Source: Candidatus Ozemobacteraceae bacterium (lineage in GTDB: Bacteria; Muiribacteriota; Ozemobacteria; Ozemobacterales; Ozemobacteraceae). From it: 64,000 bases of DNA. Positions 8,078 to 49,145 of this stretch are shown here, piece by piece. How positions within the stretch are numbered: position 1 is the stretch's first letter; the number at the start of each line of letters is the position of its first letter. The notes beneath the pieces were generated by a model. It saw only the letters and a program-made list of their open reading frames with translations, did not search any database and was not told where the DNA came from. A program made the translations under genes and the position numbers. The stretch is taken from NCBI GenBank assembly GCA_035388825.1, contig DAOOQQ010000013.1, positions 14,492-78,491 on the forward strand, given 5' to 3'.

Positions 8078-9835
8078 ATGAACAGTCAAGGCAATAGGGA
8101 GATTCCTGAATCGGGATGGAAATTTGATTTTTCCCCGCAGGGAGTGCTTCCGACGTATTGGCGCCAGAAGTTTGATTCTGTTGTTTCTCACTGCAGAATG
8201 CGTTTTACCACCCTGACGGACGAAGTCTCTGAAACGTATGGCAATGATATCTCCTGGTGGGTTTCAGAGCTGGCCTGCCGGAATTCGCTCACCAACGAGT
8301 TTTTCCTTGAATATTGCCGGATACATTTTATTCGGGAATTGATGAGCAATGGGGTTGAGATCGCCGAAATTCGGACCGATTCGCCAGAAGTTGCTTCCAT
8401 TCTTACGGGTTTTCTCGAGGGGCATCGGACGAACGTCACGATCATACGCAAAACATGGTGGCAACGGCTGTATGCTTGTTTGCCGCGAGTGAAAGACTTT
8501 TTCCTTCTTTTTATCAGAGAGCTCCTTTATGCAGCGCTTGCCAAATGGTTTTATCCCATGCAAAAAGGAGGCTTTTCAGCAAAAACCGTCCTCATCGATA
8601 CATTCGTCTTTGCGGAAAGCTTTTCTGACAATACCTTCATCGACCGGTATTACGGCCGATTGGATGCGTTTTTCCGCCCTGAAGAACGAGAAAAAATTGT
8701 TTATGCCCCGATGATCATGGGTGGTATCAAAGATCTTATTCCCATGTTCCAGAAATTACGCCATGTGCAAAACCAATTCCTGCTGAAAGAAGATCTCCTG
8801 ACGTGGAGAGATATCTTTTGGGCCTTCGGATTTCCTTTCCGGATCTTCCGGAGAAAGCCGCGAAGATGGGTCGAAAACGGAATAGATTTCACATCCCTTG
8901 CACGGAAAATATGGATTGAACATCTGTTTTCTGCGAATTCCGTCTTGGGGCTGATGAATTATCGCTTTGCGCAGCGGGTGCGGGAAGAAAAAATTCCCCT
9001 ATGCCTCGTCATCGACTGGTTCGAAAACCAAATCATTGACAAAGGCTTCAACGCCGGATTCCGGAAATATTTTCCGGACATAGCGCATATAGGATACGAG
9101 GGCTTCATAGCTCCTCCGACGTATCTGTGTGTCGTTCCTAGCAAAAAGGAGTATGAATACAAGGTTGTTCCCAAAACCATTGCCGTTACGGGGCCGGGGT
9201 TGATCGGAAAAATGAAGGAATTTTGTTCCGATCTGGATGTCATTGCAGCCCCTGGCTTCAGATTTTCATGGCTGTGGAAGGACTTTTTGCCCGAACCGGA
9301 TTCTTCCTACCATACCATTCTGATTGCATTGGACAGCACCATTGAAGCATCCCGGGATATCTTGCATTGTGCCATCACGGCATTGGAGCATGATCTCCCT
9401 CCCAATGTTCGATTCTGGGTCAAGCCCCACCCGGCATCGATGCCCATCGAAAATCTCCTGGCAACATTGGACATGAAACTTCCCCGGAATTTCACCGTCA
9501 TGAAAGGGGATTTTTCATCCATCCTCCGGAAATGCGACATGATTCTCACCAACACCTCCTCAACATGCATGGAAGCGATCGTCCTGGGAATCCCCGCTCT
9601 TATCGCCGTGAGTCAGGCCAGTTTCAGCCGCAATCCCATCCCTTCGGAGATTCCGGGCGAGTTGTGGCGCATGTGCTTTACTTCCGAGGATACTGCGCGG
9701 GCTATAGGGTATTTCTCAACGCATCCCCTGGATTGCAGGACAAGGAAAGCGCTTGGACAAAAAATCCGAAGCGACTATTTCACGGAAGTGACTTTCAGAA
9801 CGGTACGTGACTTTCTCAGGATCACCACGACGTGA
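8078..9835 (+). CDS. orphan 585-aa protein, putative capsule-type glycosyltransferase (KpsS/TagF-like GT-B C-terminal half)
   Basis: Long ORF with visibly lower G+C than its flanks. The C-terminal block VKPHP...CDMILTNTSSTCMEAIVLGIPALI resembles the K-x-HP plus (S/T)S...E(A) nucleotide-sugar-binding half of capsule or teichoic-acid transferases. I did not recognise the N-terminal half. Confidence 0.5.
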   Translation: MNSQGNREIPESGWKFDFSPQGVLPTYWRQKFDSVVSHCRMRFTTLTDEVSETYGNDISWWVSELACRNSLTNEFFLEYCRIHFIRELMSNGVEIAEIRTDSPEVASILTGFLEGHRTNVTIIRKTWWQRLYACLPRVKDFFLLFIRELLYAALAKWFYPMQKGGFSAKTVLIDTFVFAESFSDNTFIDRYYGRLDAFFRPEEREKIVYAPMIMGGIKDLIPMFQKLRHVQNQFLLKEDLLTWRDIFWAFGFPFRIFRRKPRRWVENGIDFTSLARKIWIEHLFSANSVLGLMNYRFAQRVREEKIPLCLVIDWFENQIIDKGFNAGFRKYFPDIAHIGYEGFIAPPTYLCVVPSKKEYEYKVVPKTIAVTGPGLIGKMKEFCSDLDVIAAPGFRFSWLWKDFLPEPDSSYHTILIALDSTIEASRDILHCAITALEHDLPPNVRFWVKPHPASMPIENLLATLDMKLPRNFTVMKGDFSSILRKCDMILTNTSSTCMEAIVLGIPALIAVSQASFSRNPIPSEIPGELWRMCFTSEDTARAIGYFSTHPLDCRTRKALGQKIRSDYFTEVTFRTVRDFLRITTT

Positions 9836-24660: not shown

Positions 24661-25839
24661 TCAGAGTTTCACGAGGATGGCGGTGAGGTCATCCGCGAAG
24701 GGAGCGTCGCCGCCGAAGGCGGTGACTTGCTGGAAGAGCCGCTGGAGAAGAAGATCGGGAGCCTCTGCGTGCCCTTCGCGAAGGGTGGCTTCGAGGCCTT
24801 CGACGCCGAAAAAGGCGCCGTCGGCGTTCCTGCGGTCGGTGAATCCGTCCGAGTAGAGCAGCACGAGATCGCCGGGGCCGACCGGCTGCACGATCTGGCT
24901 GTACGGCCGGAGCTGCGGGAACCCCAGCGGCGGGCTCGAGCCTTTCAGTTGGGTGATGGTGCCGGTCCTGGCCGAATAGAGGAGGGTCGGCGTGTGACCC
25001 GCTTCGACCCAGGTCATCGTGCCGGCGGCCAGGTCGAAACGTGTGTAGATAAGGGTCGCGAAGCTGCCCAGCTCGAGCAGGTCGCCGCCGAGATCCTCCT
25101 GCACCCGTCGCAGGATGCGTTCCGGTTCGGGGAGACGGCAGAGTCCGGTGGTGCAGGCCTCCACGGCGAGACGACCGATGGCCCGGGCGAAAGCGTTTTT
25201 CGTGCCGGCGCCGATCATGGCCGAATGCAGCCCCTTGCCCATCACGTCCCCGACGAGAAGATCGAAACAGTCCGGCCGGTAGGCGACGAAGTCGATGAAG
25301 TCGCCGTCCACCACCTGCGATGGCAGGCTCATGCTGGCAATCCGGGCGCCTCCCGACTCGGCGGGGATCTTGCCGAGCAGCAACGTCTTCTGGATCTCGC
25401 CTGCGATGCGGATTTCCTGTTCCCGGGCGGCCTTCTCGGTCTGGATCAGCTCATACTGGTGCAGCCCGTTCTCGAGGGCGGAGTGCAGCAGCTCGGGCGG
25501 GCAGGGCTTCGTCAGGAACCGGTAGATGTTGCCTTCGTTGACGGCCTGCATGGCGACCTTGAAGTCGAGCTCGCCGGTCAGCATGATGCGCGTCGTTTCC
25601 GGTGAAATCTCCTTCACCTTCGCCAGGAACGCCGCTCCGTCCATGCGCGGCATCCGGAAATCCGAGACGACGACGGGAAAGGGCTCTCCGTCCATGATGA
25701 CGCGAAGGCCCGCTTCCCCGTCCGGCGCCGTCGTGACGCTCCACGAGCGGCTCAGGATGCGGCTGTACGAGGAAAGGATGTTCGGTTCGTCATCCACGAG
25801 CAGGATCCGGGGCTTCTGGCCGTCGGCGGATTGGTTCAT
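24661..25839 (-). CDS. response regulator with PP2C/SpoIIE-type phosphatase output
   Basis: Receiver domain (ILLVDDEPNIL...VVVSDFRMPRMDG...K) followed by a SpoIIE-like domain (DFIDF...GDVMGKG...LLYSDGFTD). The start at the internal ATG 25839 overlaps the upstream stop (ATGA). Confidence 0.85.
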   Translation of the reverse strand: MNQSADGQKPRILLVDDEPNILSSYSRILSRSWSVTTAPDGEAGLRVIMDGEPFPVVVSDFRMPRMDGAAFLAKVKEISPETTRIMLTGELDFKVAMQAVNEGNIYRFLTKPCPPELLHSALENGLHQYELIQTEKAAREQEIRIAGEIQKTLLLGKIPAESGGARIASMSLPSQVVDGDFIDFVAYRPDCFDLLVGDVMGKGLHSAMIGAGTKNAFARAIGRLAVEACTTGLCRLPEPERILRRVQEDLGGDLLELGSFATLIYTRFDLAAGTMTWVEAGHTPTLLYSARTGTITQLKGSSPPLGFPQLRPYSQIVQPVGPGDLVLLYSDGFTDRRNADGAFFGVEGLEATLREGHAEAPDLLLQRLFQQVTAFGGDAPFADDLTAILVKL

Positions 25840-27035
25840 CGGCGCACCTCGTGTAACGCATGGCGGCAGGCTTCGAGCCAGGCCGGAATGCGGGATGTCA
25901 GACCGATCGCGTCGGTTGCGGCCCGGTCGAGCACCGGGGCGTCGGGGCATTCGAGGAACGCATTCGCGACGTGGACGGCGATGAGCGGGGCGAATGCCGC
26001 CTGCACCTGGCGGGCCGGGCGATGGTGGCCGGCGACGGCCTCCACGACCGTATCCGGCAGGCCCCACAGAGCGAGCAGATAGCCCCCGATCTCGGCGTGC
26101 GAAACCGAGAACTCGTCATACTCGGCGTCGGGAAACGAACGCCCGGCCTCCAGCCGGCGCAGCACCGGGCGCAGATACGCGGGAACGTCGAGCATCAGCA
26201 GTTTGCCGATGTCGTGCATCATGCCGCCGAGCATCGCTTCCTCCGCCATGCGGCCGCCTCCCCCCTCGGCCCGGACGATCGCGCGTGCGAGAAGGGCCGT
26301 CTGCGAACTGTGGGCCCAGATTTCGTCGAGAGAAAGGCCGGGAACGGGCGAATCGGGGGCGGTAAAAAACAGCTTAACATATAAAACCAATGACTTTATG
26401 ACGTTCGTCCCCAGGAGCTGTGTTGCCTCGGTCGGATTCGTCACCCGGCGTGGGAGACCGAAAAAGGCCGAGTTGACGAGCTGGAGCACGCGGCCGGTCA
26501 TCGAGATGTCTTTCGCGATGATCGTGCCGATCTGGTCGATCGAGGCGTGCTCGGATTCGAGGGCCCGGACCAGCTCGGTGTAGAGGGGCGGCAGGCTCGG
26601 CAGGTGCGGAATGCCGCCGATCACCTTCAACAGCTCCGGCCGCTTGAGAAGACGCCGGAGGCTGACGGCCCGGTTGATGGCCTCGACGAGCTGGGCGGCC
26701 TGGCAGGGTTTGGCGAGGAACTGGTGGGCGGCCTGGGTCGACTGGAGCAGCAGCTCCGACTCGTTGTCCGCTTCGGCAGAGAGGACGAGACGGGCGACCT
26801 CGGGATGGTGGTTGCGGGTATAGACCAGCAGATGCCCGCCATACACGGGCGGCAGGTTGAGATCGGCCACGAGAGCGTCGAAGGGCTGGCTCGCCAGCAG
26901 GGCCGTGGCCTCGGCCGGCGTTTCCACAAACAGGGTCTCCCAGTCGAGGCGCATGCTCCGGATCAGCCGCCGGAGGCCATCCAGCACGTTCCGGTCGCGG
27001 TCGACGAACAGAATCACGGGGCGGGTTGCGGTCAT
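25836..27035 (-). CDS. response regulator with HDOD domain
   Basis: Receiver domain (ILFVDRDRNVL...DALVADLNLP) followed by an HDOD-like region (LPSLPPLYTELVRAL...ISMTGRVLQLVNSAFFG...HDIGKL). The ATG at 27035 overlaps the HK stop (ATGA). Confidence 0.8.
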   Translation of the reverse strand: MTATRPVILFVDRDRNVLDGLRRLIRSMRLDWETLFVETPAEATALLASQPFDALVADLNLPPVYGGHLLVYTRNHHPEVARLVLSAEADNESELLLQSTQAAHQFLAKPCQAAQLVEAINRAVSLRRLLKRPELLKVIGGIPHLPSLPPLYTELVRALESEHASIDQIGTIIAKDISMTGRVLQLVNSAFFGLPRRVTNPTEATQLLGTNVIKSLVLYVKLFFTAPDSPVPGLSLDEIWAHSSQTALLARAIVRAEGGGGRMAEEAMLGGMMHDIGKLLMLDVPAYLRPVLRRLEAGRSFPDAEYDEFSVSHAEIGGYLLALWGLPDTVVEAVAGHHRPARQVQAAFAPLIAVHVANAFLECPDAPVLDRAATDAIGLTSRIPAWLEACRHALHEVRR

Positions 27036-27922
27036 GGGGGCGTTCCCCGATCGGATGGGCGCTGCAGGGGCAGGTGGATCGTGAAGACGGTCCGGCCGGG
27101 TTCGGATGAAACGCCGATGCTGCCGCCGTGCATGGCTTCGATGACGTGCCGGGCGATGGACAGTCCCTGGCCGGAGCCGGTTCCCGCCGGTTTGGTCGTG
27201 AAGAACGGTTCGAAGATCCGCTGCTGGATGGCCGGGGGGATGCCGGGCCCGTCGTCGGTCACCGAGATGAGAATGCCGTCCCCGTCCGGCCGGGTGGAAA
27301 CGGTGATGCGGCCCCGGTCGCCGCCGCCGGCGGTGATCTTTTCGCGGATCGCCTGCGCGGCATTCACGATCAGATTCAGCAGCGCCTGGTTGATCTCGTC
27401 GATCGAGCAGCGCACGAGGGGCAGATCCTGGGCCAGCTCCAGATCGAGATCGGCGTCGTATTTCCATTCGTGGCGCGATATTTCAACGGTGTTCTGGATG
27501 CCCCGGTTGATGTCCGACATCACCTGGTCGTGCAGCGCCGGGTGGGAAAAATCCTTCAGCGCCAGGGCGATTTTCGAGACGCGTTCGACCCCCTCGCGGG
27601 ACTGGTCGATCGCCCGCGGGATCTCGGCTTCGAGCCAGGCCGGGTCGATCGCCCGCTCCTCGGTCTCGATCGCCTGCCAGGCCGCCGGGGTGACGGCCGC
27701 GCCGGTGCGGCAGGCTTCGAGCACCTCGCGATACCGGGTCAGCAGGCGCGACAGGTCGGCGAAGGCGTTCCCGAGAAATGCAATATTGTTATTGATATAC
27801 TGCATGGGAGAGTTGATCTCGTGTGCGATGCCGGCCGCGAGCTTTCCCACCGTCGCGAATTTGCGCGTAAGCTCATCCGGAACGGGGGCACCGTCGGTCG
27901 GTCGTTGCATCGTCATCTTCAT
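27032..27922 (-). CDS. cytoplasmic sensor histidine kinase (HisKA + HATPase_c, no TM or obvious sensor domain)
   Basis: H-box LAAGIAHEINSPM, N-box NLIVNAAQA, G-boxes DDGPGI and GTGSGQGLSIA. Confidence 0.85.
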   Translation of the reverse strand: MKMTMQRPTDGAPVPDELTRKFATVGKLAAGIAHEINSPMQYINNNIAFLGNAFADLSRLLTRYREVLEACRTGAAVTPAAWQAIETEERAIDPAWLEAEIPRAIDQSREGVERVSKIALALKDFSHPALHDQVMSDINRGIQNTVEISRHEWKYDADLDLELAQDLPLVRCSIDEINQALLNLIVNAAQAIREKITAGGGDRGRITVSTRPDGDGILISVTDDGPGIPPAIQQRIFEPFFTTKPAGTGSGQGLSIARHVIEAMHGGSIGVSSEPGRTVFTIHLPLQRPSDRGTPP

Positions 27923-28096: not shown

Positions 28097-29752
28097 GTGG
28101 CCAAAAGCCGTCGACGCGCGACCGAACAGGCTTCCCCCGCTCCCGCCCCGCGAACGACGGGACGGCCGGAGCCGGCGGCCCCGCTTCCACCGGGAGAGGA
28201 CCAGGCGACGGCGCTCGATCTCCTGCTGCGCGAGATGGCCGTCGACGAGGAGGTCATCCTCGCGAACTTCGCGTTCGAGCCGGTGATCATCGGCCGTCAG
28301 CTCCGCGACAAGCGGTTCACCGTCTCGGATTTCCAGGGCGTCGAGGCGAACCGGGCCCTACTCGGCATCTTCCTCGCGACGGTCGAGGCTCAGGAGACGC
28401 TGAACCTCGCGAACGTGATGCTGCGCCTCGAAAACGAGCATCGCGCCGGCCGGCCACTGATCGACTGGATCGGCCGCGAACGGGTGCAGAAACTCTTCAC
28501 CTCCCCGTTCGGCGCGCCCGGTGTCTCCATGGTCGAGGACATCGAGCCTGTCGTCGACCGCATCCGCGACCGCAACGTCCGCGCCCAGGCCCGCCGCCTG
28601 ATGGTGTTGTATGCCGAGAAGATCGGCCGCTCGTCCGACGACGCCTTCGAGGTGCTCGGCGGCTGCATCCAGGAGCTGCGCACGCTGTTTCTCCAGGGAA
28701 GCGCCGGATACATCCGCGACATCGATGCCCATATCACCGAGATGCGCGACCTGGTCCAGGAGAACCGCCAGCGGCGCAAGAGCTACATCGGCTACGAAAC
28801 CGAGTTCCCGATTCTCCAGGAGCGACTCAACGGCATCCAGAAACAGTTCTACCTGGTCACCGGCGGGGTGGGCATGGGCAAATCCACCTTCGTGACGCAG
28901 CTCGCCTGGGATCTCGTCACCTGCAATCCCGAGCTGACGGTGTTGTATTTCAGCCTCGATCTCAATCGCCTCGACATCACCGCGAAGCTGGTCTCTCATG
29001 CCGCCGACGTGCCGATCGATTACGTGAAAAACCCGTATCTCGCCAACGTCGTCCATGAGCAGCGGCGTCAGGACGGCCTGGCGAAGGTGGCCGCGATGCG
29101 CGAGCGGCTCCTGATCATCGACGAGGGCAACGGGCGCATCTTCCTCGACGATGTCCGAAAACTGGTCAAGCGCACCAAGCTCGAACGCGGCGGAGAGCTG
29201 GCCGTCATCATCGACCCGATCTTCAAGGTCCACGTCAAAAACGAGCGGATGAGCTTCCATGAGAAGTGCAACCTGCTCTCGGCCGAACTCAAGACCATCT
29301 CGGCCGTCGAAGGCGTCACGCTCATCGCCACCGCCGGCCTGCCGAAGGCGATCAGCAACCGCCGGCCGGTCCGCGAAGACCTCGAGGAGATCATGGGCCT
29401 GCTGTACGATCCCTACGTCGTCTTTTTCCTGTACTGTGATTATCTCAACGATTTCGAAACCCCCTTCCTCGAGTGGCAGTGGGGGAAGGATAATTTCATG
29501 ATCCCGATCAGCGAGCTGATGATCGCCAAAAACAAGATGGGCGGCATCAACACCCGCATCTTTTTCCGGTACTACGAGTCGTATTCGCGGTTCCGCGAGT
29601 GCGCACCGCAGGAGGTCGAGAACTACAACGCCATGATCGAGAACCTCGAAAAGTTCAAGGAAGTCAAACGCAAGAACCGCGGGCCGTCCCCGGCTTCCGG
29701 TTCCTCTTCTGGTGGCGGTGGCCATGCCGGCGGCCGCGAGGACGAGTTCTGA
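28097..29752 (+). CDS. divergent DnaB-family (RecA-fold) helicase-like ATPase
   Basis: Walker A GGVGMGKST at 28862..28885. It is followed by a DnaB-like block order (YFSLDLNRLDITAKLVS..., LLIIDEG, AVIIDPIFKV, ISAVEGVTLIATAGLPK, DLEEIMGLLYDPYVVFFLY). The canonical DYLQL and SQLSR motifs are degenerate. The N-terminal tail is Arg/Pro-rich. Confidence 0.7.
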   Translation: MAKSRRRATEQASPAPAPRTTGRPEPAAPLPPGEDQATALDLLLREMAVDEEVILANFAFEPVIIGRQLRDKRFTVSDFQGVEANRALLGIFLATVEAQETLNLANVMLRLENEHRAGRPLIDWIGRERVQKLFTSPFGAPGVSMVEDIEPVVDRIRDRNVRAQARRLMVLYAEKIGRSSDDAFEVLGGCIQELRTLFLQGSAGYIRDIDAHITEMRDLVQENRQRRKSYIGYETEFPILQERLNGIQKQFYLVTGGVGMGKSTFVTQLAWDLVTCNPELTVLYFSLDLNRLDITAKLVSHAADVPIDYVKNPYLANVVHEQRRQDGLAKVAAMRERLLIIDEGNGRIFLDDVRKLVKRTKLERGGELAVIIDPIFKVHVKNERMSFHEKCNLLSAELKTISAVEGVTLIATAGLPKAISNRRPVREDLEEIMGLLYDPYVVFFLYCDYLNDFETPFLEWQWGKDNFMIPISELMIAKNKMGGINTRIFFRYYESYSRFRECAPQEVENYNAMIENLEKFKEVKRKNRGPSPASGSSSGGGGHAGGREDEF

Positions 29753-29755
29753 CGT

Positions 29756-31642
29756 ATGGAAACCGCCGCCGAGCTTTTCCAGAAGGGGGTCGAGTATCAG
29801 GAGCGGGGCCTGATCGACCATGCCATCTCCGAATACAGCCGCGCTCTCGATCTCGAGCCCGACAGCATCGACGTGCTGATCAACCTGGGCGCCGCGTATC
29901 TTCAGAAGGGGCTGCCGGAGCGTTCGATCCAGCTCCTGTCGCGCGTTCTGACGGATCATCCCGAGAATGCCCTTGCCCTGTTCAATCTCGGCAAGGCCTA
30001 CCTCTACAAGGAAGATGCCGAACACGCTCTTGCCGTCTTCGAGCGGGCGCGCGTTGTGCTTCCCGACGATCTCGCCGTCCGCCGCTCGCTCGTCCAGTCG
30101 CTGCTGCTGCTGAACCGGCGTGAGGAAGCGGCGACCCTGCAGCTCGGTATGCTCGACCATCTCACCGGGGATGCTCCGGCCCTGCTCGAGCTCGGCCGCA
30201 TGTTGTACGAGCAGAAACGGTATCCCGAGGCGCTGGATGTGTACCGGCGGGCCGTCACCGCGGCCGTCGACTCCTCGGCGGCGCTCGAAGGGCTGGTGCG
30301 GTGCCAGATCGTGCTCGACATGAAGGACAAGGCGATCACCTCGCTCAAGCGGGCGATGATGATCGACCCCCGCAACCCCTCCCTGCATCTGCTGATGGTC
30401 GATCTGCTGATCGCCCAAAACGAGGTGGACGCGGCCGTCGACCAGCTCAAGCGCGGCCTGGAGTTCGATCCGCGGCAGCCGGAACTGCGCGCAAAGCTCG
30501 ACGAGCTGATGCGCAAGCTTCCCGCCCTGCGCAAGCGGCTCGAGGCGCAGGAGGTCGAGGCGACGAGCAGCCTGTTCGAGGCGGACGTCTACGATATTCT
30601 CGACAATCTCTACGACGGCAAGATGGGCGTGGCCGACGCCCTGACCGCCTTCGGCCGCCTGCGATCGAAGGACCCCGCCGATCTGTTCGTCGCGGGCGAG
30701 ATGGCCAACCTGCTGTTCCAGGCCCGCCGATTCGACGATGCGGCGAATATATATGATGAAATATTCAAGTCGATGCCGCGCGACGTCCGCGCGCGCATCA
30801 ACCTCGCGAAATCTGTCGCCATGGCGGGCCGGGTTGCGGATGCACGAGCGTTTCTCGAGGAGTCGCTGCGCGATCAGCCCATGGCGGTCGATCTGGCGCT
30901 CTCCCTCGTCGAACTCCATCTGCTCAGCCGCGAGTTCCGCGAGGCGTGGCAGATACTCGAAAAGCCTCTCGCCGAGCATCCCGACAACACGCATGCCCTG
31001 TTCCTGCACGGGTATCTCGGCGTGCGACTCAACGCCTACGACGAGGCGGAGAAGTCGTTCCGGCGGCTGCTCTCCCTCGCACCGCGCGACGAGGAAACGG
31101 CCGTCTGGTTTTCCCGTCTCTGCATCCTGCGCGGCCGGCCGATGGATGCCGCGCCCGTGTGGGAGACCTTCCAGGACGGCATCGAAAGTCTGGCCGAGCT
31201 GGTCACCCTGGTGGAGCTGGCCATGTCGGCCGGCAAGGCGACCGAAGTCAAGACGCTGCTCCAGCGGATCGGCGAGATCCGGCCCAATTTCCTCGAAGAG
31301 CACATTCTCAACGGCAAGGTCTGCCTGTATTCCGGAGACTTTGCCGAGGCGGTGAAGGAGTTCGACCTCGTTCTCGCCGAGGATCCCGAGAATGCCGAAG
31401 CGCTTGCCGCCTCGGCGATGGCGAACCTGGCCCGCAACAAGGTGCCGAAGTTCTGGATGTGCTGGCAGCGGGCCCTCGACAGCGATGCCCTGTATGCCGT
31501 CCTCTCGGCACTGACGGTCTGCCGCGCCCTCAACTTCACCCAGCTCGAGCGCCTGCGTGCCGAAACGAAACGCATGCTCGAGATCGCGCTGCCCGACCAG
31601 GCCGACCGCCAGCGAGTCCTGGCCCTGCTGGCCGTCCTGTGA
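29756..31642 (+). CDS. tetratricopeptide (TPR) repeat protein, 628 aa
   Basis: TPR consensus repeats run throughout (e.g. AISEYSRALDLEPDSIDVLINLGAAYLQKG). The start is 3 nt after the DnaB-like stop. Confidence 0.85.
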   Translation: METAAELFQKGVEYQERGLIDHAISEYSRALDLEPDSIDVLINLGAAYLQKGLPERSIQLLSRVLTDHPENALALFNLGKAYLYKEDAEHALAVFERARVVLPDDLAVRRSLVQSLLLLNRREEAATLQLGMLDHLTGDAPALLELGRMLYEQKRYPEALDVYRRAVTAAVDSSAALEGLVRCQIVLDMKDKAITSLKRAMMIDPRNPSLHLLMVDLLIAQNEVDAAVDQLKRGLEFDPRQPELRAKLDELMRKLPALRKRLEAQEVEATSSLFEADVYDILDNLYDGKMGVADALTAFGRLRSKDPADLFVAGEMANLLFQARRFDDAANIYDEIFKSMPRDVRARINLAKSVAMAGRVADARAFLEESLRDQPMAVDLALSLVELHLLSREFREAWQILEKPLAEHPDNTHALFLHGYLGVRLNAYDEAEKSFRRLLSLAPRDEETAVWFSRLCILRGRPMDAAPVWETFQDGIESLAELVTLVELAMSAGKATEVKTLLQRIGEIRPNFLEEHILNGKVCLYSGDFAEAVKEFDLVLAEDPENAEALAASAMANLARNKVPKFWMCWQRALDSDALYAVLSALTVCRALNFTQLERLRAETKRMLEIALPDQADRQRVLALLAVL

Positions 31643-31680
31643 CCGGCCCTGCTGCCCATACGTAAGGAGAGCGTCCACCC

Positions 31681-33120
31681 ATGCCCGACCGTCACCCTGA
31701 TGCCCCGACCACCCCTCTCAATCGCGATCTCCGGCGGCTGCGCAGCCGCGTGCGCCGGTTGGGACGCGTTCCCGAGGCGAAACTGGACGATGCGATCTGC
31801 GATGTCATCGACCTGAAGGGACTCTCGGTCGCGGTGCTCCTCGCCGGGATGCCCGGCCTCGAGCCCGAGCGGCAGAAGCGGGTTGCGGTGAAGATCGAGG
31901 ATTTCCTCTTCTTCCATCCCGGACGGGGCCGGAAACTCCTGCCGAGACTTCTCCAGACGATCGGCCGGTGCGATCCCGCGTGCCATCGGCATCTCGTCTC
32001 GGCCTTCGCCGACGTGGCGAACCGTGCCGGAACGCGCCGCCGGACCGACGTGCCGGTTCCCGCCGCCGAGGCCGCCGCGATGCTTGCCGGAGAAGTCGAT
32101 CTGGTGCGCCAGGGCAAGGCCGTCGAGATCCTCGCGATGGGGCATGATCCCGTCCATATTCCCGCCATCCTCGACGTGATGAAGCGGGCGTTGAAAAATA
32201 TCGATCAGTATGCCGGGTTCCATTTCATCGAAACGGCGCTGTTCGCCCTGCGCCAGATCGGCGGCGACAGCGTTCTCCGGCTGATGGTGAACCCTTCCGC
32301 GCCCGCCATCCATACCCAATTCCGTCTCGAGTGGCAGAACCGCTCTCCCGAATTGGCAAAAGCCGCTCTGAATGCGATTCTGGCCCTGGGCGAGGATTTC
32401 GCCGGCCTGATTCTCAAGGTCGTCGATCTCGCCGAGTTCAACCTGCCGTTCCTCGCGATGATCCAGGAAGGCATGAATCACCCCGACAAATGGGTGCGCC
32501 AGATGGCGGTCGAGTCGATGTCGAAGATCGCCGACGCCGCTTCCCCGGAACAACTTGGCCGCATGCTGAATGACCCGGCCCCCGAGGTGCGCCTGATGGC
32601 CGTCTCGTCGCTGGGCGGCTGCCCCGCCGACCGGACCGGGACGATCCTCGCCGAAATCGCCGGCCGCGAGCAGGAAACCTACGAGATCCGCATGAACGCC
32701 CTGTATGCGCTGTTCTCCCAGAAAAACCGCGCCGAGCTCGAGAAGCTCGCCGCCAGCACGACGCGGTTCGTCGCCCTCCATGCGACGGGCCTGGCCTCGA
32801 TGCTGCAGAAGCGGGAAGACGGGCTCGAGCGGCTTCTCGAAACCCTCGGCAGCCGGTCGCCGGAGGAGTTGAAGGATATGGCTCACTATATCCTCGAGCT
32901 CGCCCGGCCCGAGGACGTCGCAAAGCTCCTCGAGGCCCGCAAACGCCTGCGGGACGAGCCGCGCGCCGATGCCTTCTTCGCGATTCTCCGGCTGTTCCTC
33001 GAGCAGCGCCGAGGTCCCGCGCTCGACAAGGCGCTTGCCGGTCTGCCGGAGTCCGAGCGGCGGGCCCTGAATGTGCTCGAAACCGGCGTCTTCGGCAGTG
33101 CCGCGGCCAGGACCCACTGA
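31681..33120 (+). CDS. HEAT/armadillo-like repeat protein, 479 aa
   Basis: HEAT-type repeats (HPDKWVRQMAVESMSKI, DPAPEVRLMAVSSLG, EIRMNALYAL). AAGGAGA RBS upstream. Confidence 0.7.
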   Translation: MPDRHPDAPTTPLNRDLRRLRSRVRRLGRVPEAKLDDAICDVIDLKGLSVAVLLAGMPGLEPERQKRVAVKIEDFLFFHPGRGRKLLPRLLQTIGRCDPACHRHLVSAFADVANRAGTRRRTDVPVPAAEAAAMLAGEVDLVRQGKAVEILAMGHDPVHIPAILDVMKRALKNIDQYAGFHFIETALFALRQIGGDSVLRLMVNPSAPAIHTQFRLEWQNRSPELAKAALNAILALGEDFAGLILKVVDLAEFNLPFLAMIQEGMNHPDKWVRQMAVESMSKIADAASPEQLGRMLNDPAPEVRLMAVSSLGGCPADRTGTILAEIAGREQETYEIRMNALYALFSQKNRAELEKLAASTTRFVALHATGLASMLQKREDGLERLLETLGSRSPEELKDMAHYILELARPEDVAKLLEARKRLRDEPRADAFFAILRLFLEQRRGPALDKALAGLPESERRALNVLETGVFGSAAARTH

Positions 33121-43869: not shown

Positions 43870-44871
43870 TCAGGCGAGGTCGATGATGTTCGTTGCCTGA
43901 TGCCGACCTGCTGTCTCCAGAAGGCCGGGATGGCCGTCCAGGACGTGGCAGGGGGAGCCGGTCGGAGTGGCGGGCCGCCGGAGATCCTTGAAAAAGGGGG
44001 ATCGCACGGCTTCCTCCAGCGAGTGGTTCGGATAACGGTGGAGGCTCCAGGGGATATGGGGACAGGGGAGGATCCACCCGTCAGCCGACACGGCGATCAC
44101 CCGACCGCCGGCAGCGCAGGGAGCCGGTTCGAGGCAGGGCGAAAGAAGTTCGATCCCTGCCTGCCTGTCCGATCCCTTGCAGAGGCGGGTCAGTTGCTCC
44201 CGATCGCTGGCCGAGAGAGGGGTGAGCGGCCCGGATGATGGGTCGAAGGGAAGAAGCGGAGAAAAGACGGCGAAGGAGCAGCCCTGGGAAGCAAGAAAGG
44301 CAGGGAAAGCCGGCGAGGTCGTTTCCAGGAGATTTTCCCGGTAGACGCGCACCGAGGCCCCGAAGGGAATGCCGGAAGCTTTGAGAAGCGTTGCGGCCGA
44401 AAGAAACGCCGTCGACGAGTCGGGGCTTCTGAACCTTGCCGAAGCCTCGGGGCCATCCGTGCTGAGCAACACCAGGATGTGGGGAAACGGTTCGAGGGAT
44501 GCGACGATTTCGCGGGTCAGCAGAAGGCCGTTCGTGACGAACGAAAAGCTGATCTGGGGAAACCGCTCGAGGGCGGAACGGATCGATGCGAGTTCCAGAA
44601 GCGGCTCGCCGCCCGTGAACGAGATCCGGGGGATGCCGAGGGCCGCCGCTTCCGCGACGAGGCGGAGAAGGGTTTCCCTGGGCATGCGGCGTTCCGGCCG
44701 GTCTGCTTTAATGCAGGAGCAGCCGTGACACCGGAGATTGCAGGCCGACGTCAGCTCGATGATCAGGCCGGGCGGGATCGGTATCGCCGAGAAGCCTGCC
44801 CGCAGGCGGCGCAATGCCAGTCGCGCGGCCAGTCGCACCAGGAAAAGGTGCCTGGCGAACCGGGATGGCAT
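43870..44871 (-). CDS. radical SAM protein with C-terminal SPASM/twitch-like Cys cluster
   Basis: Motif LTSACNLRCHGCSC (CxxxCxxC) and a C-terminal block CLEPAPCAAGG..VIAVSADGWILPCPH...SPC. Confidence 0.8.
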   Translation of the reverse strand: MPSRFARHLFLVRLAARLALRRLRAGFSAIPIPPGLIIELTSACNLRCHGCSCIKADRPERRMPRETLLRLVAEAAALGIPRISFTGGEPLLELASIRSALERFPQISFSFVTNGLLLTREIVASLEPFPHILVLLSTDGPEASARFRSPDSSTAFLSAATLLKASGIPFGASVRVYRENLLETTSPAFPAFLASQGCSFAVFSPLLPFDPSSGPLTPLSASDREQLTRLCKGSDRQAGIELLSPCLEPAPCAAGGRVIAVSADGWILPCPHIPWSLHRYPNHSLEEAVRSPFFKDLRRPATPTGSPCHVLDGHPGLLETAGRHQATNIIDLA

Positions 44872-44874
44872 CGC

Positions 44875-45099
44875 TCAGGGAGCCGTGCCGGAGGCTTGAA
44901 TGGGCGCGGAGGCCGCGGCCGGGGCATGGATCGACGGAGTGGCCGAAGCCGTCGGCGCGGGGCTGGAGGGCGTCAACCCGTACGTCACCAGCACGTGAAC
45001 GACGATGCCGAACGCGGCGACGAAGCAGAACAGCAGAAACGCCGAGCCGGTTCCCACACCTGGGGGTGTGGGGGTGATGCAATGCCCGCGACGGTTCAT
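44875..45099 (-). CDS. 74-aa single-pass membrane peptide with Pro/Ala/Ser/Thr-rich tail (hypothetical)
   Basis: The ATG at 45099 overlaps the PilZ-gene stop (ATGA), and the stop lies 3 nt before the radical SAM start. Third-codon positions are strongly G/C, as in real genes here. TM helix GSAFLLFCFVAAFGIVVHVLVTYG. Confidence 0.55.
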   Translation of the reverse strand: MNRRGHCITPTPPGVGTGSAFLLFCFVAAFGIVVHVLVTYGLTPSSPAPTASATPSIHAPAAASAPIQASGTAP

Positions 45100-46535
45100 G
45101 CGAGGACCCGCTTCCAGGCGGCGGTTACTTCCCGTGGCAGGCAGGCGGCATCGATCATTTCGAGGCAGGTGGCCGGCAGATGTGCGGGCAGGGCGGATTC
45201 GCGTTCGAGAATGTCGAGCGGAAGCTCCCAGTCGCGCGGGAACACGATGCCGCCCGGGCATTTCCAGGCGGCCAGGGCGCCGCGTTCCCAGACGAGAATG
45301 TGATCCATGAAGGAGATGCGGCCGGCCGTGAGAGTGGCGTCGGGCGCGACGATCGAGATGACGTGGGTGTTGTGGAGGCCGATGTGCAGGTAGGCCCGGG
45401 CTGTGCGAAATGCTGCGGGGAGCTCCTCGAGGGGGGCCGGCAACTCTTCGAGGGATTGGCCGAGCAGCCGGGGGGCGAGGAAGCGGGCAAACGCGTCGCT
45501 GTCGGGAGCATCCAGCTCGAGGCTGCCGCCGATCGTCTGGGGGGTTGCATACAGGATGCGCACGTTCACGGTCAGTGCGGTGCCGCCGAGTTCGAGCAGG
45601 CCGGATAGCCGATCACCCCGGCGACCGACCGTGTCGGCGCCCGCCTCGGGGGTCAGGAAGGCGATGCCGCCGGCGCTGAGGTTGGCGACGACGAGCGGCC
45701 GATCGACTTGGCCGTCGGGAAGGAAGCGCGGGGCCTGGTCGCCGGCCCGGACGATATATCGCTGATACAGACGGCGTTCCTCCCGGACCAGGTTCGAGAG
45801 CATCTGATCGCGCGCATCCGCAGGAAGGGCGGCGCATTCGAGGATCTTGCGACCCATCTGGAGCGCGCGATGTGACGGAATCTTGAAAAAGACGACGGTC
45901 GAGGGGTCGATCCGGCCGAATCCCGTCTTGCCCCGCTCGTCGCGCAGCCGGCCGGTCTGGAATGCCTGCGTGTGCTGGTTCCATGTGATGATATAATCTA
46001 AAAAATAGTATTCCTGCTTGACGATCTCGCCCTCGAGCGACTGCCAGAGGAAGATCTGCGTGCCTTCGTCCCCCTGGAACCAGCGCATCCGGAGGTTGCC
46101 CTCCTGGTTCTGGAGGCGGGAGCCGTCGATCTCGGCGATCGAGGCGCCGAGGATGCGGGGCTTGAGAAAATCGCTCACCAGGTGGGCCGCGGCGGGGGTC
46201 AGGCCCGAGAACGAACAGCCGAAAACGGTTCCGACCCGGTTGCAGACCGTCAGGCGCGTCGAGAACCGCGTGTTGCCGAGCTGGATGCGCGCCTCGACGG
46301 CCTCCCCTGCCCCGGGGAGGGGGGTGTCGGCGGTTTCGGCCGGAATCTCGAACTTGATGCCGCCGTAGCTGAGGTTCAGCACCGTGAAGGGGCCGGCCTC
46401 GTTCAGCCAGACGAGCCCGTCGGAAAGACCGATGCGCTGGAACCGGCGCCGCTCGCTCTGGGCGGGGGCCTGTTCCGGGGCCTGTTCGCCGGCGTCACGG
46501 CCGGTGATCCAGTTCAGCAGTTGCCTGAAATCCAT
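45096..46535 (-). CDS. tandem PilZ-domain protein (putative c-di-GMP receptor), 479 aa
   Basis: Two PilZ signatures: RRRFQR...NLSYGG and RRLYQR...NLSAGG. The internal ATG at 46535 is preceded by a GGGAGAGGA RBS. The ORF-track 5' extension looks non-coding. Confidence 0.75.
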   Translation of the reverse strand: MDFRQLLNWITGRDAGEQAPEQAPAQSERRRFQRIGLSDGLVWLNEAGPFTVLNLSYGGIKFEIPAETADTPLPGAGEAVEARIQLGNTRFSTRLTVCNRVGTVFGCSFSGLTPAAAHLVSDFLKPRILGASIAEIDGSRLQNQEGNLRMRWFQGDEGTQIFLWQSLEGEIVKQEYYFLDYIITWNQHTQAFQTGRLRDERGKTGFGRIDPSTVVFFKIPSHRALQMGRKILECAALPADARDQMLSNLVREERRLYQRYIVRAGDQAPRFLPDGQVDRPLVVANLSAGGIAFLTPEAGADTVGRRGDRLSGLLELGGTALTVNVRILYATPQTIGGSLELDAPDSDAFARFLAPRLLGQSLEELPAPLEELPAAFRTARAYLHIGLHNTHVISIVAPDATLTAGRISFMDHILVWERGALAAWKCPGGIVFPRDWELPLDILERESALPAHLPATCLEMIDAACLPREVTAAWKRVLA

Positions 46536-46621: not shown

Positions 46622-46641
46622 GGGCGGATCGCGATCCGCCC
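46622..46641. promoter_or_regulatory. 20-bp perfect palindrome GGGCGGATCGCGATCCGCCC
   Basis: Read directly from the sequence. It is central in the 181-nt divergent intergenic region. Confidence 0.4.
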
Positions 46642-46716: not shown

Positions 46717-48330
46717 ATGGATCTGATCAAGGAATTGAGCGACCATATCCGGGCGCGGTATCCGGTGCTGTATCTCGTGACGGGCGAGGAAGCCCGTGCC
46801 ATGGCGGCTCTGAGCGATGTCGCAAAAGCCGTCGGCAAGACCCTCTGGATCTGGTCGGCCTCCGACGGGCTGATCGACCCGAAGGGGGCCGAGGTGAAGG
46901 ATGCCAAAGGCGAGCCACTCGTCAGCCCGCTCAAAGCCCTTCGATACGCGCTCCGCTCGCAGGAAAAGGCGCTGTTCGTGTTCCGCGACCTCCATCTCTT
47001 CTTTGAAGACCCGCTTCCGGCCTATCTGAGCGACCCGCTGCAGGTGCGCCGCCTGTTGCGCGACATCGCGATCGCGTTTCGGACGAGCTACAAGAGCCTC
47101 GTGCTGGTTTCCCCGATCCTGCGCGTGCCGCACGAACTCGAGAAAGAGATCACCGTGTTCGATTTCCCGATTCCCACCCAGAAGGAGATCGCCGGCCTGC
47201 TCGAGAGCGTCATCTCCGAAGTGCAGCGCATCCACGGCGGCAAGGTGCAGATCAGTCTCAACGCCGATGCCCGTGACCGCATCGTGAAATCCGTTTCCGG
47301 GCTCACCCAGTCCGAGGTCGAAAACGTGTTCAACCGGGCGATCGTGAACGACCTGAAGTTCGACGAGTCCGACATCCCGTTCATCCTTTCCGAGAAGAAG
47401 CAGATCATCCGCAAGAGTGGCCTGCTCGAATACTACGAGGTGCAGGAGCAGCTGGCGAACGTCGGCGGGCTGGAGATCCTGAAAGACTGGCTGGTCAAGC
47501 GCGGCGAGGCGTTCACGGCGCGGGCCCGCGAGTTCGGCCTGCCCGAGCCGAAGGGCATCCTGCTGCTGGGCGTTCAGGGCTGCGGCAAGAGCCTGATCTC
47601 GAAATCGATCAGTTCGCTCTGGCGGCTGCCCCTGCTGCGGCTCGACGTGGGCTCGATCTTCGGGAAATACGTCGGCGAGTCCGAGGAAAACCTGCGACGC
47701 GCGATCCGCATGGCGGAAGCGCTTTCCCCGACGATTCTCTGGCTCGACGAGATCGAGAAGGCGTTCGCCGGGGTCTCGGGCGGAAGCGGCGACGGCGGCG
47801 TCAGCAGCCGCATCTTCGGCAGCTTCATCACCTGGCTGCAGGAGAAGACGGTGCCGGTGTTCGTCATCGCGACCTCGAACAATATCCGCGACCTGCCGGC
47901 AGAGCTGCTGCGCAAGGGCCGGTTCGACGAGATTTTCTTCGTCGATCTGCCCACCGACGAGGAGCGGCGCGCCATCTTCACCATCCACCTCGCGAAGCGG
48001 CGGCGCGATCCGGCGAAGTTCGATCTGGCCGAGCTTTCCGCCGTCAGCGAGGGCTTCTCGGGCGCCGAAATCGAGCAGGCCGTCATCAGCGCGATGTTCG
48101 ATGCGTTCCATGCCGGTCGCGACCTCGAGACCTCCGATCTGCGCAAGTCCCTCACCGAAACCGTGCCGCTCGCCGTCACGATGCGCGAGCAGATTGCCGG
48201 CCTGCGCGACTGGGCCGCGACCCGCGCCAAGCGCGCCTCGATCGGAAAACCCCCGGCCGCCGGCGCCTCGGCACGCCCCGGGGCCTCCCACCCGGCCGGC
48301 CTCATCGAACCTGGAGAAAAGAAGCCATGA
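46717..48330 (+). CDS. AAA+ ATPase, Ycf46-like architecture (N-terminal non-ATPase domain + one classical AAA module)
   Basis: The N-terminus IRARYPVLYLVTGEEARAM matches my recollection of Ycf46-type proteins. Walker A GVQGCGKSLI, Walker B ILWLDEIEKAF, and second region of homology ATSNNIRDLPAELLRKGRFDEIF. Confidence 0.85.
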   Translation: MDLIKELSDHIRARYPVLYLVTGEEARAMAALSDVAKAVGKTLWIWSASDGLIDPKGAEVKDAKGEPLVSPLKALRYALRSQEKALFVFRDLHLFFEDPLPAYLSDPLQVRRLLRDIAIAFRTSYKSLVLVSPILRVPHELEKEITVFDFPIPTQKEIAGLLESVISEVQRIHGGKVQISLNADARDRIVKSVSGLTQSEVENVFNRAIVNDLKFDESDIPFILSEKKQIIRKSGLLEYYEVQEQLANVGGLEILKDWLVKRGEAFTARAREFGLPEPKGILLLGVQGCGKSLISKSISSLWRLPLLRLDVGSIFGKYVGESEENLRRAIRMAEALSPTILWLDEIEKAFAGVSGGSGDGGVSSRIFGSFITWLQEKTVPVFVIATSNNIRDLPAELLRKGRFDEIFFVDLPTDEERRAIFTIHLAKRRRDPAKFDLAELSAVSEGFSGAEIEQAVISAMFDAFHAGRDLETSDLRKSLTETVPLAVTMREQIAGLRDWAATRAKRASIGKPPAAGASARPGASHPAGLIEPGEKKP

Positions 48331-48875
48331 GCCCCGTTCTTCCCTTCCGCCGCGACTCGGATATCCTCGAACGGATCAAAAAACAGGGGGGCCGGACCGC
48401 CGAGGACACCCGGTATCTTCAGCTCGTGACGGTGCGGCTCGGCGGAACCTCGTTCGCGGTCGATGCCCTCGCCGTGGCCGAAATCCTGATCGCTCCCCCC
48501 CTGATCGATGTACCGGCCACCGCACCCCTGTTGAGCGGCGTGGTGAATATTCGTGGAAATATTATTCCCGTCTTCGATCCCCGTCCGCGGCTGAATATCG
48601 CCCCGGCTGATCCCGGAACGCCGGCAACCGAAGAGGAACGACGGCTGCTCGTCTTCCGGGCCGCCGAGGGGCTTCTCGGAATGATCGTCGACGACGTGAC
48701 GCTCCGGCTTTCCGACGGACGGGTGCCGCCCAGGCCCCCGGACGGCGTGACCCTCGCCCCCGGCTGCGCACGCATGGCCGAGATCGGCGAAAGCCTGCTT
48801 CCGCTCCTCGAGATCGAGGTCGTCCTGACTCCCGATGAACGGCGGGCGCTTTCCGACGTGAAAAATTCGTTTTGA
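48327..48875 (+). CDS. stand-alone CheW-like domain protein
   Basis: CheW-domain pattern YLQLVTVRLGGTSFAVDALAVAEI...VPATAPLLSGVVNIRGNIIPVFD...GMIVDDV. ATGA overlap with the AAA+ gene. Confidence 0.8.
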   Translation: MSPVLPFRRDSDILERIKKQGGRTAEDTRYLQLVTVRLGGTSFAVDALAVAEILIAPPLIDVPATAPLLSGVVNIRGNIIPVFDPRPRLNIAPADPGTPATEEERRLLVFRAAEGLLGMIVDDVTLRLSDGRVPPRPPDGVTLAPGCARMAEIGESLLPLLEIEVVLTPDERRALSDVKNSF

Positions 48876-48914
48876 TCGAGTTTTTTAATATCACCCTCAA
48901 GAGGAGAATCTGAC

Positions 48915-49073
48915 ATGGACAAGTATCGATGCATGGTCTGCGGGTATGAGTATGATCCGGCCGTCGGTGATCCGGACGGCGGTATCGCTCCCGGCACCCC
49001 GTTCGAGAAGATTCCCGACTCCTGGGTCTGCCCGACCTGCGGCGTCAGCAAGGATCAGTTCGAGAAAATCTGA
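48915..49073 (+). CDS. rubredoxin (52 aa; below the ORF-track length cut-off)
   Basis: My own translation is [52 protein letters not shown]. It has both CxxCG knuckles. GAGGAG RBS at 48901. Confidence 0.9.
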
Positions 49074-49089
49074 GGCGTGCGTGCCTGTG

Positions 49090-49145
49090 CGGGGCTTTCC
49101 GGCCGACGGAAGGCCCCGCCGTCCTTTCCGCCGGCTTCGGAAAGG
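49090..49145 (+). terminator. two tandem GC-rich hairpins after rubredoxin (possible terminator or RNA element)
   Basis: Hairpin 1 spans 49090..49118 (12-bp stem with one G-U pair). Hairpin 2 spans 49123..49145 (CCTTTCCG/CGGAAAGG). No clear U-run follows. Confidence 0.35.

Follow-up and report, generated by a model that had tools for sequence, protein, structure and literature searches.

Ycf46 and Ycf35 (DUF1257) belong to the long-standing conserved but poorly understood reading frames of cyanobacteria and plastids. In Synechococcus, expression of a three-gene ycf46 operon rises strongly under severe oxidative stress and with (p)ppGpp (bioRxiv 10.1101/2025.07.21.665879), and cyanobacterial DUF2997-DUF1257 clusters have been linked to the fed7 ferredoxin (Fed7) (PMC4284462). 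Here we analyzed a 64,000-nucleotide stretch of DNA from a Candidatus Ozemobacteraceae bacterium (assembly GCA_035388825.1, contig DAOOQQ010000013.1, positions 14,492 to 78,491; the whole stretch is called the window below), in which the gene of a Ycf46-family AAA+ ATPase overlaps a gene for a CheW-domain protein and is followed by a rubredoxin gene. The ATPase of this clade has swapped the usual DUF1257/DUF2997 partners of Ycf46 for the CheW protein. The reading that we favor, with a probability of about 0.45, is that a stress-linked Ycf46 module has exchanged its partners in this lineage alone and that the CheW protein would serve as an adaptor or regulator.

The clade, whose ATPases are 66-90% identical, comprised nine distinct Ozemobacteraceae-like lineages (the window, L097, L001, L002/L003, L006, L087, L088, L089/L098 and L090). 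The CheW gene was located directly 3' of the ATPase gene in all nine, so that the adjacency is not the one-off of a single genome that the earlier note on this DNA had allowed for. The two genes overlap or lie at most 11 nt apart in eight of the nine lineages, with distances of -4 nt in the window, L097, L006 and L089, +1 nt in L001 and L090, +7 nt in L002, +11 nt in L088 and +72 nt in L087. Since the adjacency recurs in nine lineages with shuffled flanks, it goes beyond chance; the flanking genes vary between lineages, and the GC content of the clade loci ranges from 38 to 63%. Rubredoxin is the third gene in seven lineages, L006 and L090 being those without it, and a CheW-rubredoxin pair was additionally found at a contig edge in L092 and L093, which stand outside the AAA-CheW count. 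Identity to the window copies across the clade was 73-96% for rubredoxin and 42-69% for a PilZ-domain protein encoded divergently upstream. The ancestral order was likely RNase PH-Ham1-AAA-CheW-rubredoxin, as found in L001 and L006, with PilZ and, in one sub-lineage, radical-SAM genes inserted later.

Outside the clade, the comparison set included 79 Ycf46 loci from GTDB species genomes, and 80 genome loci entered the neighbor clustering. A purpose-built CheW hidden Markov model and the E. coli CheW sequence identified no CheW near any of the 79 loci. The fixed AAA+/CheW pairing described in the earlier note therefore stood within the clade (9/9 lineages) but not for Ycf46 at large (0/79). As with the searches that started from the ATPase, those that started from CheW retrieved no pair, since none of 78 non-clade CheW relatives from metagenomes had a Ycf46-like gene beside it. 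Most of these 78 loci adjoin genes for methyl-accepting chemotaxis proteins (MCP), CheA, CheB or CheR, and for the rest the contig is short or the recovered flank is free of che genes. The nearest non-clade CheW proteins that were inspected one by one are canonical, one being encoded in a cheB-cheR-cheA-cheW-cheX operon (P0140) and another being a double CheW followed by an MCP (P0136).

The genes most commonly found downstream of non-clade Ycf46 encode DUF1257 (Ycf35; about 32-35 loci) and DUF2997 (about 22 loci), both confirmed with Pfam, whereas Wallbacteria loci carry a tetratricopeptide repeat (TPR) protein and a PP2C phosphatase instead (in L004 the PP2C gene lies downstream of the ATPase gene). 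DUF1257 and DUF2997 were both missing from the window, from the 20 kb of additional flank and from all clade loci. Such a neighborhood is typical of Ycf46 rather than strict, as 34 of 66 loci of other phyla also lack it. A remote homology between the clade CheW protein and DUF1257 was considered and rejected (hhalign probability 0.1%).

The features of the locus are collected in Table 1. The gene lengths and the ATGA junction given in the earlier note were confirmed, and so was the small rubredoxin gene, on which the open reading frame (ORF), Pfam and NCBIfam agree and which starts after an intergenic distance of 39 nt. The ATGA overlap would indicate that translation of the ATPase and the CheW protein is coupled. 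A hairpin that begins 16 nt past the rubredoxin stop codon and has no T-tract probably marks the operon end. The divergent intergenic region between the PilZ and ATPase genes is 181 nt long and contains, 75 nt 5' of the ATPase start, a perfect palindrome that is a candidate operator site; a consensus scan of this region found no sigma-70-like promoter. In an activated-sludge metatranscriptome (run X9), sparse contigs were identical to window positions 46729-47018 and 47388-47567 in the ATPase gene and 48912-49069 in the rubredoxin gene, which indicates, with DNA carry-over being possible, that both genes are expressed in situ in activated sludge. None of these sparse contigs spanned the AAA/CheW junction.

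Table 1. Coordinates of the features of the AAA-CheW-rubredoxin locus, given as positions of the window.
Feature	Position	Strand	Details
PilZ-domain protein gene	45096..46535	-	479 aa; PilZ only at residues 28-121; divergent from AAA
Perfect palindrome, 20 nt	46622..46641	.	GGGCGGATCG/CGATCCGCCC (= GGGCGGATCGCGATCCGCCC); inverted repeat, 100% complementary
Ycf46-family AAA+ ATPase gene	46717..48330	+	537 aa; ORF and Pfam/NCBIfam
ATPase N-domain	46717..47421	+	aa 1-235; Rossmann-like alpha/beta core with helical lid, without Walker A
AAA module	47557..47946	+	aa 281-410; closest solved relatives p97/Cdc48 D2, E 4e-65
AAA lid domain	48019..48138	+	aa 435-474; Pfam
Disordered ATPase C-terminal tail	48229..48327	+	aa 505-537
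ATGA stop/start overlap, AAA/CheW	48327..48330	+	same -4 overlap in L097, L089/L098 and L006
CheW-domain gene	48327..48875	+	182 aa; ORF and Pfam/NCBIfam
Rubredoxin gene	48915..49073	+	52 aa; own AGGAGA ribosome-binding site
GC-rich hairpin	49089..49119	+	13-bp stem, 5-nt loop; -32.4 kcal/mol, z -2.4

The assignment of the ATPase to Ycf46, already made in the earlier note, agreed with sequence comparisons over nearly its full length. Its best database relatives carry the name Candidatus Ozemobacteraceae (Riflebacteria), and identities of 50-58% were observed to proteins of Wallbacteria, Armatimonadota, Verrucomicrobiota, Planctomycetota, Myxococcota, Chloroflexota and cyanobacteria, with 47-49% over residues 1-508 to the Microcystis, Leptolyngbya and Okeania loci and an overall range of 47-58%. 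Homology of this extent, running from Ozemobacteraceae to cyanobacteria, shows that the protein is a true Ycf46-family member. It has a single classical AAA module, on which Pfam placed AAA (PF00004) with an E of 9e-27. The three motifs previously read from the sequence (GVQGCGKS, LWLDEIEKAF and KGRFDEIF) were all recovered, with Walker A (GVQGCGKS) at 47569-47592, Walker B (LWLDEIE), a pore-loop-like KYVG and an arginine-finger region (RKGRFDEIF).

The N-terminal region had been described as a non-ATPase domain, and our results revise this in part, as a single AAA module and an N-domain without Walker A were confirmed but the N-domain itself is predicted to have a D1-like AAA fold. The AlphaFold model of the ATPase has a mean predicted local distance difference test score (pLDDT) of 75.8, with residues 1-130 mostly at 85-94 and lower values further on. 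Foldseek aligned this model with the D1-D2 tandems of p97, Cdc48 and Rix7 over about 570 columns. This alignment, combined with the lack of nucleotide-binding motifs, points to a degenerate D1-like AAA domain in the model. The N-domain is family-specific, as on its own it retrieves 1057 cluster representatives at 50% identity with E<=1e-10. A degenerate D1-like domain followed by one active module similar to p97 D2, and the KYVG motif in that module, suggest that the ATPase is presumably a hexameric protein remodeller or unfoldase.

Some more distant relatives that share the N-domain and AAA module are fusions with EAD1, EAD7, a trypsin-like peptidase or a SIR2-like domain, and several others carry inteins with LAGLIDADG endonucleases within the AAA module (the relatives concerned are P0296, P0298, P0327 and P0383, and P0257, P0268, P0329, P0370 and P0373). 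The fused domains occur in biological conflict systems, and the fusion proteins look like architectures of that kind.

The C-terminal tail of the ATPase varies with the type of partner. A hydrophobic-E-[FL] ending (RKLEF, QRMEF, RKIEL) was found in 28 of 32 ATPases encoded with DUF1257/DUF2997 compared to 2 of 34 encoded without them (loci L008-L085; Fisher p 5e-12, uncorrected for phylogeny). ATPases of the CheW clade carry a near-terminal G[LF]x[LP]F[AST]D[LM] instead. The hydrophobic-E-[FL] ending may thus be a partner-docking tail, which would be relevant to the function of Ycf46 and Ycf35.

The CheW-domain protein was confirmed to be essentially one CheW domain, as the earlier note had proposed. 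Pfam CheW (PF01584) covers residues 32-167 with an E of 4e-20 and 72.2 bits against a gathering cutoff of 23.5, NCBIfam also matches CheW, and comparison with CheW sequences of the PDB gave an E of 3e-27. The predicted fold is a double barrel with Foldseek TM scores of 0.74-0.77 to solved CheW structures, and databases label the protein as chemotaxis protein CheW. Residues E52, G71, N74, R76 and G77 are invariant in the clade and correspond to E38, G57, N60, R62 and G63 of E. coli CheW, of which the conserved E38-R62 pair is treated in PMC3828127.

The interface residues listed in a 2026 review (PMC13098124) were mapped onto the clade alignment. In the receptor groove, positions V36, I39 and V105 are still hydrophobic, I33 is replaced by Ala and Q37 is changed. 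In an alignment-dependent comparison of CheA-P5 interface 1, the conserved T46 is replaced by I, V or L in 12 of 12 lineages, and P52, likewise conserved in canonical proteins, is lost. At ring interface 2, E27 is mostly replaced by K or R and F122 by D, E, G or S, the latter lying in a variable loop (117-122) whose alignment determines the result. Positions N60, G63, I65, P67 and V58 of the CheA-P5 and ring interfaces are retained.

Two terminal signatures further distinguish the clade proteins from canonical ones. An N-terminal motif M-x-x-[VIL]-x-P-[FL] was present in 20 of 23 clade sequences and in none of 90 canonical ones (MSPVLPF in the window copy), and a C-terminal helix whose last residue is aromatic (F or Y) was present in all 23 compared to 3 of 90 (..KNSF in the window copy). 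Most clade CheW proteins are mutual best matches, the exception being the long-branch L006, and their pairwise identities are 23-38% compared to 66-75% among their ATPases.

No gene for CheA, an MCP, CheR, CheB or CheZ was identified in the window, either by phmmer searches with E. coli che proteins against six-frame segments or by Pfam scans, which agreed with what the earlier note had stated for CheA, MCP, CheB and CheR. A che operon just outside the window had been named as a possible source of a stray CheW paralogue, and none was found in the 10 kb past either window end on the same 183-kb contig (84 kb in total), nor in the flanks of the eight other clade loci. The sole receiver domain in the window belongs to a REC-SpoIIE phosphatase (24661..26067). 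Hints that clade genomes may encode MCPs or CheA were indirect. At the L088 locus, pilus genes and a Maf-family gene were observed, a family which we presume to act in flagellin modification, and the literature on Ozemobacter and Riflebacteria chemotaxis yielded indirect mentions only, amongst them the report that Riflebacteria have mcp genes (PMC10849945).

The third gene of the operon encodes a rubredoxin according to both Pfam (PF00301, E 3e-25) and the NCBIfam equivalog NF045768 (96.5 bits, cutoff 90), with the cysteine pairs C6/C9 and C39/C42 (CxxC...CxxC). Rubredoxin is an iron-centered electron carrier that takes part in the detoxification of oxygen by anaerobes. A redox or stress context for the clade module is plausible because of the induction of the Synechococcus operon, the Fed7-linked cyanobacterial clusters and the rubredoxin that closes this operon. 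In L090, one of the lineages without rubredoxin, a gene for an AhpC/TSA thioredoxin-fold protein (9288-9809, minus strand) adjoins the AAA-CheW pair, and in L092 a NifU_N scaffold gene (842-1369) adjoins the CheW-rubredoxin pair. A general Fe-S or rubredoxin neighbor of Ycf46 was considered and set aside, as a scan of 3 kb to either side at the 79 loci gave three isolated motif matches, in one locus each.

On the reading that we favor, the clade CheW protein would take the place of DUF1257/DUF2997 as a translationally coupled, dedicated partner of the ATPase, and would serve as its adaptor or regulatory subunit. A dedicated functional partnership of the two proteins is likely in our view, and whether the CheW protein acts as adaptor or regulator through direct binding is about an even bet. 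Since its fold, hallmark residues and most of the hydrophobic groove are kept, it could still grasp a helical hairpin like that of a chemoreceptor tip, and the surfaces by which canonical CheW contacts CheA-P5 and forms rings would have been re-specified. The new N- and C-terminal peptides would then be the likely points of contact with the ATPase. Because the cyanobacterial ycf46 operon is stress-induced and rubredoxin is an electron carrier, the operon may couple redox stress to a process in which ATP drives the remodelling or extraction of some client that binds CheW. Chemoreceptors would be the most plausible client, although we regard chemoreceptor arrays in this role as rather doubtful. 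The most specific form of the model is distinctly unlikely; in it, the CheW adaptor would dock a Ycf46 unfoldase on receptor tips, and redox stress, with rubredoxin as its input, would drive ATP-dependent receptor extraction and the dismantling of arrays.

Several observations weigh against this reading. The pair is limited to a single clade of family rank, where inherited synteny could account for part of its conservation, and the very fast evolution of the CheW protein could also mean relaxed constraint. The changes described at the CheW interfaces hinge on the alignment of variable loops, chiefly positions 117-122, and contact between the ATPase and CheW is deduced from sequence. Rubredoxin is missing in two of the nine lineages, and no ferredoxin or rubredoxin was found near Ycf46 in the 79 loci of other phyla. 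With no conserved redox neighbor elsewhere, the redox link rests on the clade rubredoxin and the literature, and a general redox link for Ycf46 is thin. Additionally, the ATPase tail of the window itself is eroded (AGLIEPGEKKP) and has lost most of the clade motif. This erosion is not a sequencing error, as DNA contigs of run X1 match the window, and the sister L097, whose ATPase is 90% identical, retains the tail GLNLFADPGE.

Other explanations of the same locus differ mainly in what they make of the CheW protein. It may be a repurposed fold that binds neither receptors nor CheA and whose only role, together with rubredoxin in a response to redox stress, is that of a regulatory subunit, a substrate mimic or a client for the ATPase, in a non-homologous replacement of DUF1257/DUF2997. 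This would fit the low identity among clade CheW orthologues (23-38%), the alignment-dependent but systematic changes at both CheA-P5 interfaces and at receptor contacts I33 and Q37, the lack of che genes within 84 kb, the occupation of a gene slot held elsewhere by DUF1257 and the tie of the ycf46 operon to oxidative stress. However, the invariant residues are exactly the CheW hallmarks (E38, G57, N60, R62 and G63) and the groove keeps hydrophobic residues at V36, I39 and V105, which is unexpected if the fold alone mattered, and profile comparison finds no relation between CheW and DUF1257, so that we hold this explanation to be rather unlikely. The same intact hallmarks, the canonical fold, the solid Pfam and NCBIfam matches and the database name would suit a canonical CheW that serves a che system elsewhere in the genome, with its position being a functionally meaningless inheritance of synteny in one family. 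The narrow phylogenetic range of the clade and the mcp genes reported for Riflebacteria are also in line with such hitch-hiking. It is nevertheless improbable, as the flanks are reshuffled in every lineage while the pair still overlaps or lies at most 11 nt apart in 8 of 9, at GC contents of 38-63%, and as the terminal peptides are typical of the clade (the N-terminal one in 0/90 and the aromatic end in 3/90 canonical proteins). Conserved directional, although alignment-dependent, changes at the CheA-P5 interfaces, the loss of the usual Ycf46 partners together with a changed ATPase tail motif in the same clade, and the 78 non-clade CheW loci, never found with this AAA gene and mostly beside che or MCP genes, also argue against a passive neighbor.

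The fusions of distant Ycf46 relatives to EAD1, EAD7, trypsin-like peptidase and SIR2-like domains raise the idea that the locus serves in conflict or in defence against phages, in which case the AAA+ protein would be the NTPase and CheW and rubredoxin would be sensor or effector parts. The AAA module also matches IetA weakly in PADLOC (86.8 bits), but this match is partial and of a generic AAA kind, an IetS-type partner is absent, and PADLOC gave no match for the CheW or PilZ proteins. Additionally, the ATPase belongs to the slowly evolving group common to cyanobacteria and plastids (47-58% identity) and not to the fused paralogues, and the locus lies in the stable housekeeping synteny RNase PH-Ham1-AAA, without hallmarks of mobile elements; a role in defence is scarcely credible.

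The divergent operon (window positions 43870-46535, minus strand) encodes the PilZ protein, a 128-aa ORF without Pfam match and a radical-SAM enzyme (43870..44871). PilZ is found divergently upstream of the ATPase gene in five of the nine lineages and lies outside the conserved core, and the radical-SAM gene and the small ORF are limited to the window and the closest sister, L097. The proposal in the earlier note that the five or six genes could form one functional module is not supported by this comparison. A radical-SAM module shared with Verrucomicrobia, where a radical-SAM gene lies upstream of Ycf46, was dropped as a candidate, since the similarity is at superfamily level only (26% over 80 aa). 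The radical-SAM protein of the window also gave weak PADLOC matches to pVip (viperin-like) at about 37 bits.

Further genes of the window were recorded at a greater distance from the operon. Positions 1-21700, and L096, contain a large cluster for the biosynthesis of sugars and surface polysaccharides with NeuB, two UDP-GlcNAc 2-epimerases, dehydratases/epimerases, B12-binding radical-SAM enzymes, methyltransferases and a flippase-like gene. The GC fraction of this cluster is 0.49-0.60 compared to about 0.64 in the rest of the window, and is lowest at 8-10 kb, in the surroundings of a 585-aa ORF that has no Pfam match. At 24661-27922, the REC-SpoIIE (PP2C) phosphatase adjoins a protein with HATPase_c only, and the two may form a partner-switching regulatory module. 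The region 28097-33120 encodes a 551-aa protein that has a DnaB C-terminal/AAA_25 (RecA-like) domain only, without the DnaB N-domain; genes for a large TPR protein and for a protein with HEAT repeats come after it. Cyanobacterial Ycf46 reportedly interacts with KaiC, and this KaiC/RadA-like ATPase, 17 kb from the Ycf46 gene, is of possible interest in that respect. Just past the 3' end of the window, a BrnT/BrnA-type toxin-antitoxin pair was observed (L095, 13900-14392).

Our literature searches found no paper on a CheW-AAA+ pairing. Both families are known, and the pairing, the partner replacement and the co-variation of tail and partner appear to be new. For Ycf46, these observations offer a model in which the products of the downstream genes would be tail-docked partners or adaptors of the ATPase. 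If the CheW protein is a receptor-docking adaptor, the complex would be the first ATP-driven machine dedicated to the remodelling of chemoreceptor arrays and, by analogy, DUF1257 and DUF2997 would play the part of client adaptors for the Ycf46 of cyanobacteria and plastids. For chemotaxis research, the locus provides an unusual CheW domain that is fixed outside a che cluster, tied to a putative remodelling ATPase and apparently rewritten at the positions of its CheA-binding faces. The value of these results is limited by their origin in a single uncultured sludge and sediment family, the Ozemobacteraceae.

Compared to p97/Cdc48 with its UBX or Npl4-Ufd1 cofactors, and to Vps4 with MIM-bearing ESCRT-III, the clade ATPase shares a D1-D2-like tandem, a D2-like active module and the proposed docking of a small adaptor or client by short terminal peptides. 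Unlike p97, it has a D1 without nucleotide-binding motifs, no p97-type N-terminal cofactor domain and a CheW fold as its putative adaptor, and the likeness is a mechanistic analogy only. The closest relatives are the Ycf46 proteins of cyanobacteria and plastids (Synechococcus Synpcc7942_0417 and Synechocystis), which have the same degenerate AAA-like N-domain of about 235 aa with one classical AAA module, and whose genes in cyanobacteria likewise head a small operon in which one or two short genes follow. In contrast to these, the clade ATPase has CheW and rubredoxin as partners in place of DUF1257/DUF2997, ends in a different C-terminal tail and occurs in a non-photosynthetic, presumably anaerobic host. 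The clade CheW protein resembles canonical CheW (E. coli; PDB 2ho9 and 6s1k; T. tengcongensis 2qdl) in its single domain, its fold, its hallmark residues and its partly hydrophobic groove. Unlike canonical CheW, it is encoded outside che clusters and coupled to an AAA+ gene, carries an additional peptide at its N-terminus and, at its C-terminus, a helix whose last residue is F or Y, and differs, in alignment-dependent positions, at interface 1, where T46 has become I and P52 is lost, and at interface 2, where E27 has become K/R and F122 is acidic or small. It also evolves much faster than its partner ATPase. Altogether, these comparisons suggest that a chemotaxis scaffold fold has been co-opted as the partner of a protein-remodelling machine.

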